Below are positions 2,836 through 55,538 of a stretch of DNA of 64,000 nt, in pieces (within the stretch, counting starts at the first letter, position 1; each line of letters starts with the position of its first letter). The position numbers and the translations under genes were made by a program. Under the pieces are notes generated by a model. It searched no databases, was not told the origin of the DNA, and saw only the letters and a list, made by a program, of their open reading frames with translations. The stretch spans positions 3,291 through 67,290 of IMG/VR virus record IMGVR_UViG_2912865023_000006. One strand, given 5' to 3'. This DNA is from a virus.

Positions 2836-5397
2836 TTACCGCATAAAAATAACGGCTACACCGTATCCCTTTTCGGAATCGTAAGCCGTCTCAATTCGCA
2901 TTACTTTAAAGCCGTCATTGTCCGCTGTTTTCGTTGCAATACCGTCGGCGCCCGCCGTAACTCTATCGCCTACTCTGACTGTGTCGTCAATGCGTACGTG
3001 TATTTGCCCGATAAGCCCGACGATATGCCATTCCATGCGTTCATCACGCGGAATATATTCGAGAGTCGGATCGTAGTTCGGATTCTCTTTCGGTACAGTC
3101 AGCTCGCGACCATTCTCGATGATTGTTTCGTAGATCATGCCGCCAAACTCGTTACGTAAGAACCGATCATTCCAGTAAAAACCCGCGCCTCCCAATACAA
3201 CGCCCGCAGTTTCAGATATAATGCCGTCCACGCTGTCTCCTGGCTGTGCTTTTCGGATTTTATCGCCTTCGAGCGTTACCATGAGACCGGAATCAATTCT
3301 ATGTCCGTCCAGTGACTCGAAGTATTCCGCGACGTCTTTAAAGTCTGAAACACTTTCGACCCGGCCGACGCCCTGAATGTTACCGTTCATGGAGTCGATC
3401 TTCCATTTGATGTTCCCTGCGGATGCTTCGCCAGAACCATATCCGCCTACAACCGTATAACCGTCATCGTTTATTACGGACTGTGACGATAAGATGGTCC
3501 GGGCCGGGCCGTCGCCCTTTGTATGAGAATTATTCGTTGCGAGAATAGCCTGTCGTGACCCTTCAGTCGATGAGCCTCCCGAAACGCCGCCCATAAAGTT
3601 TCTAGGCCCTTTCGCAACATTCGCTCCCGTAGCCGCAATGATCGCGCTCGTCGGATCTAAAGGTGATCCGCTTGTGGTGGCGCCTTTGAATCCACCTTTA
3701 AAATTCGTAGGGACAACGCTATACGAACGCCCTCCGAGATTTGCCGCAGATGCATACCCAACCGCGTTAATTGCTGCAAGTTCTACTTGGTTGTTCGGAG
3801 AATAAACGCCCATCTCACCACTATCCCCGATCAATGTGGCGCCAATCAGAGAAGCGTTATAAACCCCGCCACCGAACGAAACCCCGATAGGCGAAGATTC
3901 AGAAATTGTAACACCGGATAGCTGTACATAATCCGTTCTTTGCGCGCCGCCAAAAGCTCGTATGTCGTGGCTGGCCGTCTTAAAACCTCGAATCTTAATT
4001 CCATCAACGTTGATATAGCTAGATTTAAATTGAAACGCGACTACCGGGTTGGCCTTGTAATCGTATTGCGGATCGCCGATCGCAGTAAAATTAGAAATTT
4101 GAACGTGCTTATAGGCTGAGATAACCAGCGCTCTCGGAGAAATATCTGCGTATAAACTATTAAAGACGGGTTCAATTGACGTGCAATTTGCGAATGTCAC
4201 ATGATACGCAGATGTACTCTCAGGATCAGTCTCGCTATGATGGGCGATGTGTCTTGCATCGTAAGAACGAACGTCCCTATAAGAAACATGATTCGTCACA
4301 TGGATGTTTTGCGATGCCGGCCATTCTTTGTGCGCCTTTACTTCGACGCCTCGAATGTTTCCGCTCGTATAACAGCCGTCTACCCAAACATTTTTTGACC
4401 CGTCATCAATTTCGATCCCATTCGAATTAGCAGCACCTGCCGGGTGCGCCTTTCCGCTAGGGTTCATACAATGCGAATTTGAAATGAAAATGTATTCGCT
4501 ATAATGTGTCGTAATCCCATCGTCACCGTAACCGGACGCAACGCAGTTATCCAGCCAAACGTAATATGATCCGTCAGCCGTATAATTTTCCGCAGTATTG
4601 TCGTATGTCGGAGCCGTTATATCGAAGCCGTGTAGGCCGGGGTTTACCGCCTCTACGTCCTTAATCCAACCGAATTTTACTTTCGCGAAAGTTAAGCAGC
4701 TCGAATTTATACCGCCCGTCGCAGTCACGCCGCCTTGTCTATCCGGGTTCCAATCGAGCGTCATCCCCTCTACGTAGATATTGCGGTTTCCCCCGGCATG
4801 ATCAGCGTTCGTAATAACCCACTCGCTGGCCGGCGTATCTTCATGTAACTTCAGCGTGGTAACGCCTTTTCCTTGACCGATAAGATACGTCCATGATGGG
4901 AGTTTAGCGCCTTTGATGACGTATTCTCCCGCTGATAAATTAAGGCGCACCTTGCCATTACCGAGGGCCCTTACGAAAGCATCCGTACTATCCGTTTCAC
5001 CAGTAGGATCGGCGCCATAATCGTCCACGTTTACGTTGCGTTGGATCTTTCGGAGCAACTTGTAATACTCTTTATCGAGCCGCTCTTTTAATAGAGGTTC
5101 GATGTTACCTTCCGCATCGACGCGGGCGTCTACCACCTCTTTTACGTTCGTTCCGTCTGCGTTAAGAATCAAGTTTTTTATACGGTTATACAGACCGTCT
5201 ATATATGTGCGCAAAGAAAACCCGCTATGGTCAATCTGATCTGACGTATGGGCATGTTCTGCGGTCTTATGGCGGCTCAAATCGTTACTCAGATCGAGCA
5301 TGTCGTTGCCGATGTCTTCGAGGTTTTGGTTGTAGTTCTTGATATACTGACGGTCAAATCCGCTAGTATCAGCTTTCTTATATGAATATTTCCCCAT
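2836..5397 (-). CDS. Tail spike / pre-neck-appendage-like protein with beta-helix and peptidase G2 autocleaving chaperone domain
   Basis: VNVDDYGADPTG beta-helix start, C-terminal DVAEYFE motif and GLIGQIHVR as in phi29 gp12-type proteins. Confidence 0.85.
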   Translation of the reverse strand: MGKYSYKKADTSGFDRQYIKNYNQNLEDIGNDMLDLSNDLSRHKTAEHAHTSDQIDHSGFSLRTYIDGLYNRIKNLILNADGTNVKEVVDARVDAEGNIEPLLKERLDKEYYKLLRKIQRNVNVDDYGADPTGETDSTDAFVRALGNGKVRLNLSAGEYVIKGAKLPSWTYLIGQGKGVTTLKLHEDTPASEWVITNADHAGGNRNIYVEGMTLDWNPDRQGGVTATGGINSSCLTFAKVKFGWIKDVEAVNPGLHGFDITAPTYDNTAENYTADGSYYVWLDNCVASGYGDDGITTHYSEYIFISNSHCMNPSGKAHPAGAANSNGIEIDDGSKNVWVDGCYTSGNIRGVEVKAHKEWPASQNIHVTNHVSYRDVRSYDARHIAHHSETDPESTSAYHVTFANCTSIEPVFNSLYADISPRALVISAYKHVQISNFTAIGDPQYDYKANPVVAFQFKSSYINVDGIKIRGFKTASHDIRAFGGAQRTDYVQLSGVTISESSPIGVSFGGGVYNASLIGATLIGDSGEMGVYSPNNQVELAAINAVGYASAANLGGRSYSVVPTNFKGGFKGATTSGSPLDPTSAIIAATGANVAKGPRNFMGGVSGGSSTEGSRQAILATNNSHTKGDGPARTILSSQSVINDDGYTVVGGYGSGEASAGNIKWKIDSMNGNIQGVGRVESVSDFKDVAEYFESLDGHRIDSGLMVTLEGDKIRKAQPGDSVDGIISETAGVVLGGAGFYWNDRFLRNEFGGMIYETIIENGRELTVPKENPNYDPTLEYIPRDERMEWHIVGLIGQIHVRIDDTVRVGDRVTAGADGIATKTADNDGFKVMRIETAYDSEKGYGVAVIFMR

Positions 5398-27351: not shown

Positions 27352-28149
27352 ATGATTAACGATCCACGAAAACTGAATAAGGCGATCAAAGAACGAAACG
27401 GAGGCGCAGCCCCACCGACCAAAGCAAAGCTGCACCGTCCGAATCGAACGAAGCACTTCCAGTATATCACAGCGTTTATTCTATGCGCAATGTTATTCGC
27501 ATTCACCGCAGTCACCGCACAAGCCACCGATGTTTACCGCAACTTTGCCGAACTCCAATCCAACGAACCCGATACGAACTACAACATTTTAGCAATCGAC
27601 CGCACTTCGCCCGTTTTGATACTCGCACCGCATGGCGGCAGTATTGAAGGTGGAACTAGCGAACTTGCTCGCGAACTCAGTAAAAACTATTCTACGTATC
27701 TATTCGAATCTCTTAAGACGCCGAACGGCTTCGACCTCCACATCACGAGTACCCATTTCGACGAACCGACTGCGCTTGACTTAGTTGCGCGGCACCAACG
27801 CGTTATATCGCTCCACGGTTACAGCGACAGCGCCGAGCATATTATCGTAGGCGGCACCGATCCTGTTCGTGGTCAGACGTTAGTAGATCGCTTGAACGCC
27901 GCCGGCTTTAGTGCCGAACTCGTAGGCGCCGGCCATCGATTTGCAGGCGCGAGTAGCGCGAACATAGCGAATAAGTGCATAACCGGCGAAAGCTTACAGA
28001 TCGAGCTGAGTACCGGTTTGCGTAAAAGCATGTTCGGTAAGTTCTCGCTTAACGGACGCGCCGGAACCGAAACCGAGACGTTCTATAAGTTTGCCGGGCT
28101 GCTGTCGGAGTTCATTAACGAAAACTATAACGTTGGAGGTAACGAATAA
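27352..28149 (+). CDS. Secreted poly-gamma-glutamate hydrolase (PghP family)
   Basis: ILAPHGGSIEGGTSELA, YLFES, LHITSTHFDEP, SLHG, QIELS motifs; hydrophobic stretch ending AQA. Confidence 0.88.
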   Translation: MINDPRKLNKAIKERNGGAAPPTKAKLHRPNRTKHFQYITAFILCAMLFAFTAVTAQATDVYRNFAELQSNEPDTNYNILAIDRTSPVLILAPHGGSIEGGTSELARELSKNYSTYLFESLKTPNGFDLHITSTHFDEPTALDLVARHQRVISLHGYSDSAEHIIVGGTDPVRGQTLVDRLNAAGFSAELVGAGHRFAGASSANIANKCITGESLQIELSTGLRKSMFGKFSLNGRAGTETETFYKFAGLLSEFINENYNVGGNE

Positions 28150-29912
28150 TGATGCGATATACATTGGAAGTCGAAAAGTACGATGTGCGCTGGGACGGGA
28201 CTGAGGCGGCTATGACTACACGAGGAATTAATCGCGCAATATACGAGGCGGCTGAGGCTGGGTACTCTGAGGTCGAAATCCCTAAAGGGAATTATCTTAT
28301 CGATGCAGTAAACCGCCTTGCAGTTAAACCGGAAGAAGGCGCAGGGATACGTGTACCGTCACACATGACCCTAATATTGCATCCAAAAGCAGAACTTATT
28401 GTAGAGCCAAACAGTTCTTACGGATATTCCTGCATCTACCTTGGAGAAGTCGAAAACGTGACGATAAAAGGCGGAAAGATACGCGGCGAACGTTATCAGC
28501 ACGACTTTACCGGGCACGGCAATCTAAAAAAGAAGGAAACTCACGAATGGGGTTACGGCATAAACGTACATGGCGCCAAAGATGTCGTGATCGAAGGCGT
28601 TGATATTGCGGATTGCACAGGTGATTGTATTATGGTGAACGCTCAAGGCATGCTAAACGTGCCGTGGACGACTTACCGGCCTGCCCGCAATATTACGATT
28701 GAGCGCTGTAAATTGGATGGTGCTCGTCGAAACAATATATCGGTCACTGGCGGCGAGGATGTGAAAATCGATAAAAACGTAATAACCAACGCTGGCATAA
28801 ACGATGGCTGCAAGCCTATGTTCGGCATTGATATCGAAGGTTACGGAGAAGGCAATATCGACTACGAAGAGCCTCGCAATGTGAGGATAACGAATAATAC
28901 GTTCAAAGGAAATATATTGCAGTCCGTTTGCAACTTCAGCGGATACGAGGTCGTCATTTCCGGAAACTATTCGGATAACTCGATCTCTTATGGATTCGGA
29001 ACCGACACTACTATCTCAAATAATACGTTAGTACGTACGGACAAGAAATATACCGCAATTACGAGCCTCGGCGTTTCTGCCGGCTTTACTGGAAATAACA
29101 CGACAATCACCGGAAATACGATAAAAGGCTTCAGCAGTGGTATTGACGTCCGGGGTGCAGACGTCTCAGTATCCGGAAATACAATTTCGGAGCTCAGCGC
29201 TGATGGCACCGCATTGGCCACCTTCGAAGCCAAGAACGTTAAGTTTTCGGATAACATCGTAAACCACTGTCCGGGTAAATTATGTAGCGCGCGTAACTCA
29301 AAAGATATAACGTTCGAAGGTAACGATCTCCACGATTCGGATATTACTGCGATAGAGATTGCCGATTCCATTAACGTTAAAGCGAAGTCGAACGACATTA
29401 AACGCAGTAAGCAAGGCGTCGTAGTTACTCGGTCTTCGGCGAAACTGATAGACAACGACATTGATCTTACCGACTACTCTGGCGCAACAGGATACGCTAT
29501 ATCTTTCGATAAGGGAAGCGACGTGGATATCAAATACAGCCGCATACCAAAACCGGCAAACATGGCTATTTACGGAGAAAGCGCCGAAGGTCGAACCGTT
29601 CGCATTAAGAACAACGACATCACTGACGCGAAATGCTTGATACCGATTTACGTCGTCGGTGGTAAAAACCCTGAAATATCCGGAAATGACATAACGTTTA
29701 ATCGGAAGGCTTCGGGCGGTTACGGAATTCAAACGAAAAACACCGACGGTGCCTTAGTAAAGGAAAACGTTGTGTATTCGTCCAACTCTTTCGGGCTGTA
29801 CAATCCGATAAAGACTTCCGATTCTATTAATTCGCGGGTCATCGGAAATAAGATAGCCGGAACCCTATCGCTTAACCAAACCGATATAGAAACGAATAAT
29901 ATTTCAATTTAA
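28149..29912 (+). CDS. Right-handed parallel beta-helix (pectin-lyase-like) protein
   Basis: IPKGNYLID, repeated ITGNTI / IEGVDI-type beta-helix repeats; no signal peptide. Confidence 0.85.
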   Translation: MMRYTLEVEKYDVRWDGTEAAMTTRGINRAIYEAAEAGYSEVEIPKGNYLIDAVNRLAVKPEEGAGIRVPSHMTLILHPKAELIVEPNSSYGYSCIYLGEVENVTIKGGKIRGERYQHDFTGHGNLKKKETHEWGYGINVHGAKDVVIEGVDIADCTGDCIMVNAQGMLNVPWTTYRPARNITIERCKLDGARRNNISVTGGEDVKIDKNVITNAGINDGCKPMFGIDIEGYGEGNIDYEEPRNVRITNNTFKGNILQSVCNFSGYEVVISGNYSDNSISYGFGTDTTISNNTLVRTDKKYTAITSLGVSAGFTGNNTTITGNTIKGFSSGIDVRGADVSVSGNTISELSADGTALATFEAKNVKFSDNIVNHCPGKLCSARNSKDITFEGNDLHDSDITAIEIADSINVKAKSNDIKRSKQGVVVTRSSAKLIDNDIDLTDYSGATGYAISFDKGSDVDIKYSRIPKPANMAIYGESAEGRTVRIKNNDITDAKCLIPIYVVGGKNPEISGNDITFNRKASGGYGIQTKNTDGALVKENVVYSSNSFGLYNPIKTSDSINSRVIGNKIAGTLSLNQTDIETNNISI

Positions 29913-31151: not shown

Positions 31152-31331
31152 ATGGAGGAAAAATACGAGACTAACGGCCTTGATACGTCGATCACTTACG
31201 AATACAAGGAATTTCCGGACAAGCGCGCAGGACGATGCGACAATTGCGATTATACGCTGTTCAAAAGCTCGGTGAAGAGCGGGAAGTTTTTGCGCGAATG
31301 TAGAAGATGCGGTATGAAAAAGAATATTTAA
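31152..31331 (+). CDS. Small zinc-ribbon protein (59 aa)
   Basis: GGAGG RBS; MEEKYETNG...RCDNC...ECRRCGMKKNI; extended -10 TGATATAAT upstream. Confidence 0.75.
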   Translation: MEEKYETNGLDTSITYEYKEFPDKRAGRCDNCDYTLFKSSVKSGKFLRECRRCGMKKNI

Positions 31332-31335
31332 ACGC

Positions 31336-31369
31336 AAAAAGAAAGACGCCTTAATGGGCGTCCTTTTTC
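31336..31369. terminator. Bidirectional intrinsic terminator
   Basis: A-tract, GACGCC-ttaatg-GGCGTC stem, T-tract; lies between convergent genes. Confidence 0.85.
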
Positions 31370-31372
31370 GTT

Positions 31373-31426
31373 TTATGCTCCTCTAACGATACTTTCTAGC
31401 GGACTAGCTCCCCGTGGCATTCCCAT
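31373..31426 (-). CDS. 17-aa peptide MGMPRGASPLESIVRGA carrying two arbitrium-like hexapeptides (GMPRGA, SIVRGA)
   Basis: GGAGGTGA RBS (GGAGG 8 nt before ATG), TGGTATAAT extended -10 (TATAAT at 31460-31455), terminator immediately downstream. Confidence 0.8.
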   Translation of the reverse strand: MGMPRGASPLESIVRGA

Positions 31427-31455
31427 TCGCCTCACCTCCGACCTACATAGTAAAA

Positions 31456-31884
31456 TTATACCACGCGTGCTTTCCTTTTCGCACCTATATTCGACCATAT
31501 CGCGTCCTGCTTCCGTTTATTCTCGGCAGCTTCCGGAAACATACGAAAAAACTCGGCTTCGTCTTCGATGGGCTTGCGGAAATAATAGACGAGGTTCTTC
31601 GCGCCGCCTCCGTTCTCTACCGTTTGTATTAGCTGCGCCTGGACTAACGTTTTGACTGCGTTACGGTACGTTGAATCGCTCATGGCCAGCGCCCTAGCCG
31701 CCTGTTCTTGCGTTGGAAAGGCGTAACCGTAATCCGCATTATAAAACTTCAGCAGAAACGCGTATACCAACACGGCGTTACCGTTCAGCTTCGGAAAGTA
31801 TTGATAATGCGTTAGAATAACGTTAGGTATGCCCGTATAGCCCGCCGCATTATCAAACGGCAGGGCCTTCGCTTTATCGCTCAT
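31456..31884 (-). CDS. HTH_36-like winged-helix protein (initiator N-terminal-domain-like)
   Basis: YTGIPNVIL...LVYAFLL...YAFPTQEQAARALAMSDSTYRNAVKTL; start moved to MSDK. Confidence 0.8.
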   Translation of the reverse strand: MSDKAKALPFDNAAGYTGIPNVILTHYQYFPKLNGNAVLVYAFLLKFYNADYGYAFPTQEQAARALAMSDSTYRNAVKTLVQAQLIQTVENGGGAKNLVYYFRKPIEDEAEFFRMFPEAAENKRKQDAIWSNIGAKRKARVV

Positions 31885-31915
31885 ATAATCGTCCTCCACT
31901 TAAATAATATTCGAC

Positions 31916-32763: not shown

Positions 32764-33152
32764 TAATTCGTCCCCCTTATCGCGTAGCCTTCGCCGTGGC
32801 TCGCCCAGTAGTAATAAACATCCGTTAACCTATCGACAGCTGCGTTTAAGTGAAATACGACGGCTTGTTGCGTAATGCCTATCCGTTCGCCCGCATCGGT
32901 TTGCGTTAATTCGCCGAAGTAAACGAGCTCAATCGCCTGACGTTGCCGATCCGTTAAGCCGGCGAGTTCAATCGCTTTATGAATGTCGATTAGCACTTCT
33001 ACGGCCGCATAGTCGCCGCAACGCTTCCGGCTGACGAACTTCTGGTAATCGGCGAGTAATAGCTTGACGCCTTCTGCGTTATCTAGCGCATAGGCTGCGT
33101 TAAATTCGCGATCCTTTCGGTGTATGTCCACTCTGACTTTACCTATCTTCAC
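32763..33152 (-). CDS. Sigma-70 region 4-like HTH transcriptional regulator
   Basis: LTDRQRQAIELVYFGELTQTDAGERIGITQQAV; start uncertain (GTG 33152 or ATA 33146). Confidence 0.8.
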   Translation of the reverse strand: MKIGKVRVDIHRKDREFNAAYALDNAEGVKLLLADYQKFVSRKRCGDYAAVEVLIDIHKAIELAGLTDRQRQAIELVYFGELTQTDAGERIGITQQAVVFHLNAAVDRLTDVYYYWASHGEGYAIRGTN

Positions 33153-33705
33153 CAACCCCCTCTGACATGTCGGATGCAAATCTAAAATAAAAGTTTTTTG
33201 ATCTGGATTTTCTTCTCAAGATACACTGCTTAGAAATCGTGTCCCTCCTGACACCAGTCACTTTTGATGCTTCGGCACCACTTTCGTAAGTCGATATCAC
33301 GTGTCCATCGGAACTAATTTGAGAAACAGGCTTTGAGTGTAATTTTTTCATCAACTCTCTATGTCTTTGGGGATCGATTAATCCGGTGCGCCAAGCGTGA
33401 ATCTTATTTTCTCTAGGAGTAACCCACTCTAAGTTGGATACTTTATTATTCTTTTTATTCCCATCCTTATGGTTTACGTAATTTCTCTTCGTGTCTTTTT
33501 TAAGGAAAGCTAATGCAACCAACCTGTGAACACTGACATCTTTTCTGTTACCATTTAACCAGAGGACTACTTGCGAGTAACCATGTTTATCTCTCAGTTT
33601 TAGCTGCTTACCTGTGAGGTGGTTTCTAACATTACCTTGGTTGGAGACTTCGTAAGCGTCTCCACACTCCACCAATCCTTTCAATTTCCTCCACTCTTCT
33701 TTCAA
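33139..33705 (-). CDS. Free-standing NUMOD4-HNH homing endonuclease
   Basis: EEWRKL...YEVSNQGNVRN (NUMOD4), VHRLVA...VNHKDGNKKNNKVSNLEW (HNH), C-terminal NUMOD1-like; AT-rich. Confidence 0.92.
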   Translation of the reverse strand: MKEEWRKLKGLVECGDAYEVSNQGNVRNHLTGKQLKLRDKHGYSQVVLWLNGNRKDVSVHRLVALAFLKKDTKRNYVNHKDGNKKNNKVSNLEWVTPRENKIHAWRTGLIDPQRHRELMKKLHSKPVSQISSDGHVISTYESGAEASKVTGVRRDTISKQCILRRKSRSKNFYFRFASDMSEGVGEDR

Positions 33706-53244: not shown

Positions 53245-53853
53245 TTATTGCGCGATCAAGTAGTCTCGGTAATCGCCGAACTGTTTGGTATCGAAATTGC
53301 GTGAGAGCTTTTCGAGTTTGCGTATGACTGTTGAGTGATGTAGACCCAACTTTTTTCCGATTGCCGTCGGAGTTGGCTTCTCACTCGAAAGATATGCTTC
53401 GGCGATTTGTATTGTCGTTGCGTCAGATGTAGTACCTAATAGGAAGTTGATCAGTTGCCGCTGGTCAACTTCTTTTTTTGTTGTCAAAAGTTCTTCCGGG
53501 GTTATCGTGCAGGGGACCTCGAATGTTGCCGCATCCTTATGGTCTCCTTTTGGTATAATTTCTCTTTTGTTTCTGTTTACCCGCCCCCTTAAAAAATAAC
53601 GCCTCTGTAACGGAACACTTGCATTAAATAACCTTTCAAAATCATGCTCTCCGTTGTACGACTCAATGCAAGAAAGTAAGGTATCTTCATAAATCGCTCT
53701 TGCCTCATAATAATCTGCACCAATTGATTTACCGATTGTTTTGAACTTTCGGTCATTTCTTGTTATGAAGTAATCGTAAACCATCCTAAAAGCAGATTCA
53801 CTTCTACTTTCTTGGTACTTTAATACTTCGCTATTCAATTGTTCTTTTCTCAA
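53245..53853 (-). CDS. Phage sigma-70-family / sigma-like factor
   Basis: Region 2-like AFRMVY...EARAIYEDTLLSC and C-terminal HTH TPTAIGKKLGLHHSTVIRKL; GGGAGG RBS. Confidence 0.75.
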   Translation of the reverse strand: MRKEQLNSEVLKYQESRSESAFRMVYDYFITRNDRKFKTIGKSIGADYYEARAIYEDTLLSCIESYNGEHDFERLFNASVPLQRRYFLRGRVNRNKREIIPKGDHKDAATFEVPCTITPEELLTTKKEVDQRQLINFLLGTTSDATTIQIAEAYLSSEKPTPTAIGKKLGLHHSTVIRKLEKLSRNFDTKQFGDYRDYLIAQ

Positions 53854-54052
53854 TTTTACGTCCTCCCTTTTGCTTACATACGACTATATGCACCTGCTTA
53901 CACAACCGCGCATTTTTTTGTTTGTTTTTTCTCTATGTGTAAATAATACCAAGTATTTTCTGCAATTATCTGAAAACGACACCCTATTTATATAAAAATA
54001 AGTAGCGCGGATACGACCTGAGTATCGTGTTTCGTAGAAGCTTTAGAAAATT

Positions 54053-54083
54053 AAAAAACCCCACAACGTAATGTTGTGGGGTT
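54053..54083 (-). terminator. Intrinsic terminator downstream of aimP
   Basis: AACCCCACAAC-attac-GTTGTGGGGTT then TTTT. Confidence 0.88.
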
Positions 54084-54092
54084 AATAAAAAA

Positions 54093-54224
54093 TTAAGCGC
54101 CAACCCGAATGTCGGCTACCTTATATCCTCCTTCGGTGCTAGCTTGATTCTGTTTATCATATTTAAATGCAAATCCTGCTGCCGCCATCACTACGATTAA
54201 AGTGGCTAATAATATCTTTTTCAA
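54093..54224 (-). CDS. aimP: Arbitrium peptide precursor (43 aa), predicted mature peptide DIRVGA
   Basis: AAAGGAGAGG RBS, TTG start; MKKILLATLIVVMAAAGFAF signal peptide, ends VA-DIRVGA; directly after aimR. Confidence 0.9.
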   Translation of the reverse strand: MKKILLATLIVVMAAAGFAFKYDKQNQASTEGGYKVADIRVGA

Positions 54225-55389
54225 TTAAAACCTCTCCTTTAATTAATTTTTTGAATTTTAGGAATGGTCTAAGCGCTCGTGAGTCAGCTCCTGCTTTCTC
54301 AAGCTCTTTCGCTACTAACCTTGCAAAAAAGAAGTTTTCTTGACAGAAAAAAGACTCTAGGCAATTATACATTACATCTATTGACTTTTCCGCTGTGTTT
54401 TCGAAAAATATTATAAAATTGTCTTTATCGCCCCTCTCTAATATCGTATGTAACTTCGCTAAAGAAATTTTCCCGTTTCTCGCTTTCTGATATGCTCTCA
54501 GCCTGAAGTTAGAATCTTCATCAAGCTCAACGCCGTGAAAGACTTTAGCGAAATCTAAATTGAATTTTGCCTCTTGGATATACTGCAAATCGCCCACTTC
54601 ACGCATTAACTCGTAGCTTTTCCGGAGGTTATACAAACAGACATTTTTATCATCCGGTAAGTACGACATCCCTATAACATAATATGCATCAGATTTCTTT
54701 TTCGCGGATATATTTGCATTAATAATGGATTCAGCAAAATCCCGAGCAGATTTTACATCATTAAGTTGCAAACTAATAGGCGCCAATAATTCACAGACCC
54801 TGAACGTTAAGCATTCTTTATAAAAGGTTTCTCGCGGCCCTAGGTTTGTTATATCCTTCTGGATTTCCGAGACTTCATTTATTATTTTTTGTATGTCACC
54901 TTCAAAATAGTTGTTATACTGTCGAATGATATTCATTAAGATCAAAAGTGGTTTACTTGTTATATTGTGGAGTCTTCCTATTGCATCCTTCAGTTCAAAA
55001 CCGCTCAACGTTCCTACCATATAGTTATAAACAATGCGGTACACTTCCACCGTCTGTTTAAGAACTCCGTCAGTATTTTGGTGAAGTAGTAATAATCTTT
55101 TTAAAAGGGGAGCGTTTGTAGTAATTGCGGAGTATTCAAATGCATTTTTTATTGTTTCTGTCCGTATGATATGCAAACACCATTCTGACAAAATTTCATG
55201 ACTTCCCTTTCCTGTTTCTCTTGAAATCAGTTGAGCGAATTTAATAAGTTTCTTGAAACTTATTTTGCCTTTCTTGAAAAAATCCCTATATGCACTTTCA
55301 CTCATTCCAACAAACTCCATAACATCCGTCTTTTTTATGTCATCGTGGTCTTCAATAAAATCATGCACCATTTTTGTGATGTATTCCAA
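54163..55389 (-). CDS. aimR: Arbitrium receptor AimR
   Basis: 408 aa, N-terminal HTH then TPR-like helices; AFEYSA, YVIGMSYL, AKFNLDFAK; followed by a peptide gene. Confidence 0.9.
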   Translation of the reverse strand: MEYITKMVHDFIEDHDDIKKTDVMEFVGMSESAYRDFFKKGKISFKKLIKFAQLISRETGKGSHEILSEWCLHIIRTETIKNAFEYSAITTNAPLLKRLLLLHQNTDGVLKQTVEVYRIVYNYMVGTLSGFELKDAIGRLHNITSKPLLILMNIIRQYNNYFEGDIQKIINEVSEIQKDITNLGPRETFYKECLTFRVCELLAPISLQLNDVKSARDFAESIINANISAKKKSDAYYVIGMSYLPDDKNVCLYNLRKSYELMREVGDLQYIQEAKFNLDFAKVFHGVELDEDSNFRLRAYQKARNGKISLAKLHTILERGDKDNFIIFFENTAEKSIDVMYNCLESFFCQENFFFARLVAKELEKAGADSRALRPFLKFKKLIKGEVLIEKDIISHFNRSDGGSRICI

Positions 55390-55447
55390 GTGAGCCTACC
55401 TCCTTGATTATCTATTTAAATTCGATCAGCAACTTTTAACTAACTCA

Positions 55448-55477
55448 ATTATAATTATTGCATTATCGATATGTCAA
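55448..55477 (-). promoter_or_regulatory. sigmaA promoter of aimR
   Basis: TTGACA-18-TATAAT. Confidence 0.7.
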
Positions 55478-55538
55478 TAATAATTTTCGGTAGTTTTTGT
55501 TAAAGCGATAATATAAAATATACTGGACACCTTTACGA

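Follow-up and report, generated by a model that had tools for sequence, protein, structure and literature searches.

A leaderless mini-gene in Bacillus subtilis prophages as a candidate source of counterfeit arbitrium signals

A short open reading frame (ORF) of 17 codons in a Bacillus subtilis provirus is proposed here to be the translated, leaderless, and receptor-less precursor of counterfeit clade-2 arbitrium signals that would act on the AimR receptors of rival SPbeta-like phages, a reading to which we assign, from the sequences of this ORF and its relatives, a probability of about 0.7. The ORF, hereafter the mini-ORF, lies in a stretch of 64,000 nt (the window; positions 3,291 to 67,290 of IMG/VR record IMGVR_UViG_2912865023_000006) of a B. 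subtilis provirus of 68.7 kb and 48% GC, the closest named relatives of which are the temperate B. subtilis phages 268TH007, 268TH002, and phi18-2. Its product, MGMPRGASPLESIVRGA, consists of an initiator Met and the arbitrium-type hexapeptides GMPRGA and SIVRGA joined by the linker SPLE, and is encoded on the minus strand by ATG GGA ATG CCA CGG GGA GCT AGT CCG CTA GAA AGT ATC GTT AGA GGA GCA TAA. An earlier interpretation made without database searches (the sequence-only reading) had described a mini-gene with a Shine-Dalgarno sequence and a terminator, coding for foreign arbitrium peptides without a signal sequence. Both regulatory elements are present (Table 1), and the 17-mer contains no hydrophobic segment, that is, no Sec-type signal peptide.

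The mini-ORF belongs to a family. Scans of the viral collection that targeted the peptide start and the ribosome-binding-site (RBS)-start junction, together with retrieval of relatives of the two types of upstream gene described below, recovered at least 19 distinct homologous peptides of 17–39 amino acids (aa) at the same position in related B. subtilis proviruses, many of them isolate-derived, and in NCBI genomes of Bacillus size. The search for homologous mini-ORFs whose hexapeptides vary to match AimP signals, which the sequence-only reading had proposed as a check, thus gave a positive result. All of the homologues start with M-G, lack a hydrophobic leader, and are built of two to five arbitrium-type modules, with two in the window and up to five in L133/P0005. 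Each is preceded by GGAGGTGA-N5-ATG, with GGAGGTGA kept as the Shine-Dalgarno sequence in all members read, and followed by a terminator, and the last residues before the stop codon are RGA in 18 and RGV in one. In the GFTVGA-GFPRGA version the architecture is unchanged, although the RBS spacer, the linker, and the terminator have all diverged. A scan of species-representative genomes for the RBS-start junction returned chance matches in unrelated taxa only, and this prophage is evidently missing from those genomes. Among the matches listed for a first degenerate pattern scan (at least 80 loci), the majority belonged to an unrelated marine-phage protein in which MGMPRGAT occurs internally. The longer versions of the mini-ORF occur in public protein collections solely as unnamed ORFs, and ORFs of 17–39 codons such as these are usually neither called nor named in annotation. 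We regard the mini-ORF family as very probably a real gene family selected for its peptide.

That selection acts at the level of the peptide, as had been suggested from the differing codons of the two RGA motifs in the window, is indicated by the synonymous versions of the modules and by the convergent codons of SASRGA. There are six synonymous DNA versions of GMPRGA and four of SAIRGA, whilst SASRGA is encoded by AGC GCG AGT AGA GGC GCG in slot 2 and by AGC GCA TCA CGC GGA GCA in slot 3; as there is no synonymous path from AGT to TCA or from AGA to CGC, SASRGA was reached independently in the two slots. Across the cassettes read at the DNA level, the RGA cores use five Arg, two Gly, and four Ala codons and are altered at the amino-acid level only once (RGV in L008), and five different amino-acid sequences (SIV, GIV, SAI, SII, and SAS) occur at positions 1–3 of slot 2. 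In natural arbitrium signals it is positions 1–3 that confer specificity, with the RGA touching conserved receptor residues. Furthermore, all length differences between cassettes are in-frame, and all but that of L122 represent the gain or loss of whole modules.

These patterns bear on the alternative that there is no peptide function at all, the frame being accidental or vestigial within an intergenic or terminator-leader segment, or the functional product being an RNA. The ORF is indeed tiny and unnamed in databases, and its bases before the stop codon resemble the end of the longer gene found where the cassette is missing (..AAG AAG GCA TAA compared with ..AGA GGA GCA TAA). However, the conserved Shine-Dalgarno sequence, the in-frame indels, the confinement of synonymous variation to the signal cores, the convergent encoding of SASRGA, and the existence of more than 19 variants that are all composed of arbitrium-type modules make this alternative extremely unlikely. 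An RNA element was considered and dropped, since no match to Rfam rose above noise and the segment showed no significant fold apart from the terminator (z = -0.23). In 300 Markov-shuffled windows, exact known clade-2 signals occurred 0.077 times per window, and ORF tails with RGA before the stop codon and a second RGA within 20 aa occurred 0.017 times per window, such that a chance origin of the mini-ORF is very unlikely. Only two short ORFs in the window that are preceded by a Shine-Dalgarno sequence end in G-A or G-G, and these are the true aimP and the mini-ORF.

The modules were compared with cognate signals read directly from phage records, in which a slash marks the cleavage site: SPbeta ..YEVA/GMPRGA, phi3T ..VTVA/SAIRGA, Goe11 ..YQVA/GIVRGA, SPbetaL3 ..IKVA/SPSRGA, and BUCT082 ..VTVA/SASRGA. 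A wider harvest of SPbeta-like AimRs was made with an alignment as query, single-protein AimR queries having reached near-identical relatives only, and the cognate signals in 45 SPbeta-like proviruses were GMPRGA (17), SASRGA (9), SAIRGA (7), SIIRGA (6), SPSRGA (5), and GVVRGA (1). All of the SPbeta-like AimPs harvested carry one signal each, are Sec-exported, and are cut after V/I-A. Six cassette modules are identical to signals read directly in this way (GMPRGA, SAIRGA, GIVRGA, SIIRGA, SASRGA, and SPSRGA), and GFTVGA is listed as a natural clade-2 signal (PMC13220667). The cassettes therefore hold the commonest clade-2 signals, roughly in the order of their natural abundance.

Peptides ending in -GA also resemble some Phr signals, and the xxxRGA peptides might instead manipulate the host through Rap or another RRNPP receptor, or through a host response to SAIRGA, with effects on sporulation, biofilm formation, or competence. 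Such a response of B. subtilis, specific to the SAIRGA sequence, is reported in a 2026 preprint. We nonetheless judge host manipulation improbable, as the module repertoire tracks the whole clade-2 signal set and its natural abundance, includes look-alikes of the signals of sibling phages (ELKPGG and EIKPGA), and has a combinatorial diversity for which a single host receptor would not select.

The signals in the cassettes are not those of the phages that carry them. The signal predicted by the sequence-only reading for the phage of the window, DIRVGA, is confirmed by an aimP gene adjoining the aimR gene (Table 1), and a cognate AimP was readable beside AimR in 14 carriers, giving DIRVGA in seven (including the window), NQLGG in three, ELRPGG in two, INAIGG in two, and EIKVGG in one. 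The own signal is present in the cassette of none of the 14, so that the foreign character claimed for the window's peptide extends to every carrier in which it could be judged, and two further complete carriers (G016 and G017) give no AimR match with the Pfam model or with the AimR of the window. The seven DIRVGA carriers bear seven different cassettes, and there is thus no co-variation of receptor and ligand, the opposite of what is seen in true AimR-AimP pairs. The AimRs of the carriers are 17–18% identical to clade-2 AimRs, and whilst the position of R228 stays basic, D360 and N206, which hold the Arg of the signal, are replaced by N/Q and Q/K/H/F respectively, a comparison that is suggestive only, being drawn from an alignment at 17% identity. 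The AimR of the carrier, which is of a distant clade with DIRVGA as its signal, is probably not affected by the cassette.

It could be supposed that the modules serve as additional ligands of the AimR of the carrier itself, for example as a fast intracellular pro-lysogeny input. One carrier, G012, has ELRPGG as its own signal and the near-cognate GEIKPGA as the first module of its cassette, which is in keeping with such self-signalling. The absence of the own signal from all 14 cassettes, the seven cassettes of the DIRVGA carriers, the lack of a detectable AimR in G016 and G017, and the lack, in the alignment, of equivalents of the residues that bind the Arg of xxxRGA make self-signalling very unlikely. 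With their GFTVGA-GFPRGA cassette, the proviruses of G016 and G017 (L141 and L143) would emit arbitrium-type signals without sensing any.

For the production of counterfeit signals, the mini-ORF would be transcribed at the end of a regulatory operon containing a sigma-like gene and a helix-turn-helix (HTH) gene, possibly with a weak -10 element of its own, and would be translated from its perfect Shine-Dalgarno sequence, steps that are suggested by the anatomy and conservation of the locus. Methionine aminopeptidase removes Met1 ahead of Gly, and as Gly is always residue 2 this removal would leave the first signal (GMPRGA here and GFTVGA in others) with its exact N-terminus, with the stop codon providing the exact free carboxylate of the last. 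Host peptidases would then cut the conserved junctions to free the hexapeptides, which is the weakest step of the scheme; the residues following internal cores are nearly always x-Pro (SP, NP, GP, or FP), and the signals are preceded by Glu (xPLE and GPAE), by Tyr (PQLY, PQRY, and KPKY), or directly by the Ala of the previous signal. The freed hexapeptides would bind clade-2 AimRs and shut off aimX, such that a co-resident or incoming rival would be pushed into, or held in, lysogeny. We infer this action from the exact identity of the modules to natural signals, and from published peptide-addition and cross-talk experiments in which added or cross-talking clade-2 peptides led to more lysogeny and less induction of non-cognate phages, to the benefit of the emitter (PMC13220667; 10.1101/2025.10.13.681967).

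Action could be cell-autonomous, upon co-induction in a polylysogen or upon superinfection, which would best explain the missing export signal, or the peptide could be released at lysis, matured by extracellular proteases, and taken up through Opp by neighbouring cells. B. subtilis genomes commonly combine arbitrium prophages of clades 1, 2, and 3. More broadly, it seems fairly probable that phages of the phi18-2/268TH007 group carry a fast-evolving signal-forging gene, with the signals of up to five rivals, that would lock competing prophages in dormancy within a shared cell or after lysis, and we would call the family poly-arbitrium mimics.

Several observations weigh against the mini-ORF as a precursor of counterfeit signals, amongst them the near-cognate module of G012 and the low identity of the AimR alignment given above. 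The cassette junctions (E/S, Y/G, and A/xP) are unlike the V/I-A site of every natural AimP read. The AimR of SPbeta clamps both the free N-amine of the hexapeptide (through Q299, E300, and M296) and its free C-carboxylate (through R228) (PMC6458997), and proteolytic processing must therefore be assumed; the unprocessed 16-mer is unlikely to be an active AimR ligand, so that internal cuts would be required. The same features favour a blocker, in which unprocessed or partly processed peptide would occupy the AimR of the rival without the inhibitory change and so keep it active, or would occupy Opp or the maturation proteases, driving rivals to lysis or induction or jamming the import of signals. 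The peptide has no export signal, its junctions differ from natural cleavage sites, and extended peptides could bind aberrantly to a receptor that clamps both ends. However, the exact N-terminus of the first module and the exact C-terminus of the last suggest that the selected product is agonist hexapeptides, the modules are identical to the six signals read and to GFTVGA from the literature, and a blocker would have no need for positions 1–3 to track natural signals so precisely; we consider the blocker improbable.

Returning to counterfeit signals, the proposal that both modules of the window are signals of rivals stands for GMPRGA, the signal of SPbeta, and needs qualifying for SIVRGA, which had no counterpart among the natural cognate signals of the AimPs read. 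SIVRGA differs from GIVRGA and from SIIRGA by a single residue each, and is also present in a further cassette (P0008). Nor was a natural cognate counterpart found among the AimPs read for the GPVRGA, GFPRGA, and GE[IL]xPG[AG] modules, the last of which, where they stand first in a cassette, are similar to signals that sibling phages within the carrier family use as their own (ELRPGG and EIKVGG). Additionally, in the single genome in which co-residence could be judged, IMG genome 2860856459, which holds a carrier together with an SPbeta-like prophage, the signal of the rival (SIIRGA) is not among the modules of the cassette (GMPRGA, SASRGA, and SPSRGA).

A stand-alone transcript of roughly 110 nt had also been proposed, a claim that calls for qualification. 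The extended -10-like box TGGTATAAT and the terminator are both present, but the upstream 147-aa HTH gene terminates at the TAA within TGGTATAAT (31458..31456), a promoter scan found neither a full sigma-70 site nor a -35 element upstream of the mini-ORF, and the TG extension of the -10 box occurs only with the 147-aa gene upstream, carriers with the other upstream gene having AGGTATAAT without the TG, so that most carriers lack it. The mini-ORF is no less likely to be co-transcribed with the upstream operon. A longer reading of 41 aa, from an ATG at 31498, was dropped; this upstream extension is limited to the context of the 147-aa gene, and behind the other upstream gene the frame extends only 18 codons further before it closes and offers no start codon, whereas the Shine-Dalgarno sequence and ATG of the mini-ORF are universal. 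Gene callers picked a 53-aa equivalent of the longer reading in one NCBI genome.

The cassette is moron-like in being a discrete insertion between conserved phage genes that is variably present among close relatives. It is missing from phages 268TH007 and phi18-2 and from proviruses L004, L005, and L128, and in 268TH007, phi18-2, L128, and L004 the terminator lead-in AACGAAAAAGGACGCC directly follows ..GTATAA, whilst in carriers about 83–150 nt (spacer, Shine-Dalgarno sequence, and ORF) lie between the upstream stop codon and AACGAAAAAGGACGCC. The terminator is older than the cassette, since it is also found in relatives without the cassette, where it comes immediately after the stop codon of the upstream gene. 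The cassette is found behind two unrelated upstream genes, one of the 147-aa HTH_36 type as in the window and one of a 266–285-aa type; of 48 loci of the latter type, 18 have the cassette, 26 have none, and four are cut off before the site. Backbones that are 94–96% identical over the flanking 800 nt nevertheless differ by whole modules, and GMPRGA and GEIKPGA each occur both with SIIRGA-GPAE-SASRGA and with SAIRGA-SPSRGA, a pattern indicating that modules have recombined.

Two other origins were considered and dropped. In 268TH007 and phi18-2, a gene of 268–285 aa (ending in ..NVKKA or ..NVKKV before the stop codon) ends exactly at the end position of the mini-ORF, but many carriers have that long gene intact with the cassette behind it, and the mini-ORF is thus not a 3' remnant of a longer gene. 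Recent capture of DNA from SPbeta-like aimP genes is disfavoured by the Arg codons, which are CGT, CGA, or CGC in the natural genes as opposed to AGA or AGG in slot 2. GC content is 50% in the mini-ORF, similar to that of its host phage, and ~40% in the aimP of the window; because codons and GC differ, the modules were not recently copied from low-GC SPbeta-like genes.

Table 1. Features of the window and cassettes of the mini-ORF family (pieces of each cassette are separated by hyphens).
Feature	Position in window	Strand	Description
Mini-ORF	31373..31426	-	17 codons + TAA; M-GMPRGA-SPLE-SIVRGA
GMPRGA module	31423..31406	-	Mini-ORF sub-part
SPLE linker	31405..31394	-	Mini-ORF sub-part
SIVRGA module	31393..31376	-	Mini-ORF sub-part
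Stop codon	31375..31373	-	Mini-ORF sub-part
Shine-Dalgarno sequence	31439..31432	-	GGAGGTGA; 5 nt before mini-ORF ATG
Extended -10-like box	31463..31455	-	TGGTATAAT; promoter role uncertain
Cassette indel	31373..31455	-	~83 nt between upstream ...GTATAA and terminator lead-in AACGAAAAAGGACGCC
Intrinsic terminator	31332..31365	-	Hairpin 31365..31342, 9-bp stem, 6-nt loop, then T-run
Upstream 147-aa gene	31456..31899	-	Pfam HTH_36, weaker DnaD_N; last long gene of operon
Convergent 59-aa gene	31152..31331	+	Cys-rich, zinc-ribbon-like; DUF8096 in homologous loci
Own aimP	54093..54224	-	43-aa pre-pro-peptide, Sec leader, ends ...KVADIRVGA
Own predicted mature signal	54113..54096	-	DIRVGA
Own aimR	54163..55389	-	408 aa; PF22871, 92 bits; 18% identical to SPbeta AimR; sole AimR in window
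Poly-gamma-glutamate hydrolase and beta-helix protein	27352-29912	+	PF05908, 213 bits (hydrolase)
HNH/NUMOD4 homing-endonuclease-like gene	33139-33705	-	Overlaps start of sigma-70-region-4 gene
Cassette			M-GMPRGA-SPLE-SIVRGA (window)
Cassette			M-GMPRGA-SPLE-GIVRGA
Cassette			M-GMPRGA-NPLE-SAIRGA-GPAE-SASRGA
Cassette			M-GMPRGA-SPLE-SIIRGA-GPAE-SASRGA
Cassette			M-GMPRGA-SSLE-SASRGA-SPSRGA
Cassette			M-GMPRGA-NPLE-SAIRGA-SPSRGA
Cassette			M-GMPRGA-SPLE-SIIRGA-GPVRGA
Cassette			M-GELNPGA-GPQLY-GMPRGA-SPLE-GIVRGA
Cassette			M-GELNPGA-GPQLY-GMPRGA-SPLE-SIIRGA-GPAE-SASRGA (39 aa)
Cassette			M-GELKPGG-FPQRY-GMPRGA-SPLE-SASRGA-GPVRGV
Cassette			M-GEIRPGA-SPLE-SASRGA-SPSRGA
Cassette			M-GEIKPGA-NPLE-SAIRGA-SPSRGA
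Cassette			M-GEIKPGA-NPLE-SIIRGA-GPAE-SASRGA
Cassette			M-GEIKLGA-NPLE-SAIRGA-GPAE-SASRGA
Cassette			M-GEIKPGA-NPLE-SASPSRGA
Cassette			M-GFTVGA-KELPKPKY-GFPRGA
Three minor cassette variants			From protein collection: GPTE for GPAE; SPLQ-SIVRGA; GMARGA

The operon terminated by the mini-ORF includes, besides the 147-aa HTH gene, a gene for a sigma-70-region-4 protein, and a contig search returned no exact record of the upstream 147-aa protein. The terminator hairpin begins 7 nt past the stop codon of the mini-ORF, and the terminator is bidirectional, being common to the mini-ORF and the convergent 59-aa gene. The latter is 73–75% identical at the nucleotide level to a gene that lies ~2.7 kb upstream of aimR in SPbeta, phi3T, and other SPbeta-like phages, a likeness that shows DNA exchange between the carriers and their presumed targets. 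Further from the cassette, the poly-gamma-glutamate hydrolase and the beta-helix protein lie between it and the structural genes, the hydrolase fitting a host that makes a poly-gamma-glutamate capsule, as B. subtilis does. The place of the HNH/NUMOD4 gene is taken by a DNA methylase in 268TH007 and phi18-2.

The carriers' own arbitrium systems also vary, with at least five cognate systems (DIRVGA, ELRPGG, NQLGG, INAIGG, and EIKVGG) at the same place in sibling carriers. In the window, aimR and aimP (53500-55500) lie in an island of 33–37% GC within a genome of 48% GC overall, which suggests that the arbitrium system was acquired horizontally. DIRVGA bears what we take to be a resemblance to DRVGA, the PhrI pentapeptide of ICEBs1, and if that likeness is right, cross-talk between DIRVGA and the conjugative element is conceivable. 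In the carrier record L114/L119 (G009, IMGVR_UViG_2925601445_000006), an SPbeta-type aimR (318 bits) that is broken by one TGA and one TAG lies at 53.5–55.9 kb, only ~3 kb away from the mini-gene, and this record may be a hybrid or may include an adjacent element. In L109 (G002, a 95-kb record), a second arbitrium system at 68.1–69.0 kb has the signal GFGRGA, which is absent from the cassette of that carrier; the system is that of a family of elements of roughly 30–60 kb (L173–L181) and is probably an adjacent mobile element.

No description of a receptor-less, leaderless, multi-signal gene was found in the 2025–2026 cross-talk papers, a 2026 review, or the full-text literature searched. Arbitrium cross-talk was shown experimentally only in 2025–2026, and has been read as an incidental consequence of cognate signals being alike. 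Should our proposal be true, the mini-ORF family would represent the first gene known to serve solely for counterfeiting the communication of another virus, in an arms race over viral signalling; phages would have evolved active signal forgery, which would help to explain the diversification of clade-2 signals and receptors. The differing cassettes in near-identical backbones provide a ready natural experiment, and the family raises the biochemical question of how internal hexapeptides are released from a leaderless precursor.

The mini-ORF shares with the AimP proteins (SPbeta YopL, phi3T_90, and Goe11 AimP) the same hexapeptides, the position of the last signal directly before the stop codon, and its encoding by a phage. 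However, AimPs (41–43 aa in the natural ones read, with some loci apparently longer depending on the start codon called) have a Sec leader of KK plus a hydrophobic segment and yield one mature peptide after V/I-A, whereas the mini-ORF has no leader and two to five different signals across its family. Furthermore, aimP lies directly downstream of, and co-evolves with, aimR, whereas the mini-ORF lies behind the HTH_36 gene at 31.4 kb, ~23 kb from the aimR of its carrier, and never holds the carrier's own signal. Of five AimP traits the mini-ORF thus shows one, a C-terminal 6-aa signal ending in G-A, and lacks the leader, the adjacency to a receptor, the single signal at a V/I-A site, and the co-variation; the identity of modules to proven ligands suggests that its peptide would, like an AimP signal, bind AimR and release it from the aimX promoter.

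The enterococcal iCF10 and iAD1 are plasmid-encoded inhibitor peptides, of which iCF10 competes at an RRNPP-type receptor, is secreted, and regulates the plasmid's own receptor. Like the mini-ORF product, iCF10 is a short peptide from a mobile element; unlike it, iCF10 targets the receptor of its own plasmid. The yeast alpha-factor precursor, which has a secretion leader, contains tandem self-signals with short spacers that are removed by processing, an arrangement similar to that of the mini-ORF, but its repeats are identical. The multi-copy propeptides of RRNPPA systems likewise hold several peptides per precursor, the internal copies of which need both N- and C-terminal cuts, and it has been speculated that one copy might address 'other systems' (PMC9765709); these propeptides are, however, exported, cognate, and adjacent to their receptors, whereas the mini-ORF has neither export signal nor receptor and its copies are different foreign signals. 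Natural AimP cross-talk (Cell 2026, PMC13220667; bioRxiv 10.1101/2025.10.13.681967) has the same outcome as that proposed here, the repression of a rival AimR by xxxRGA peptides, but is a by-product of a phage's own signal, whereas the mini-ORF would be a separate gene bearing the signals of several rivals and serving no self-communication.

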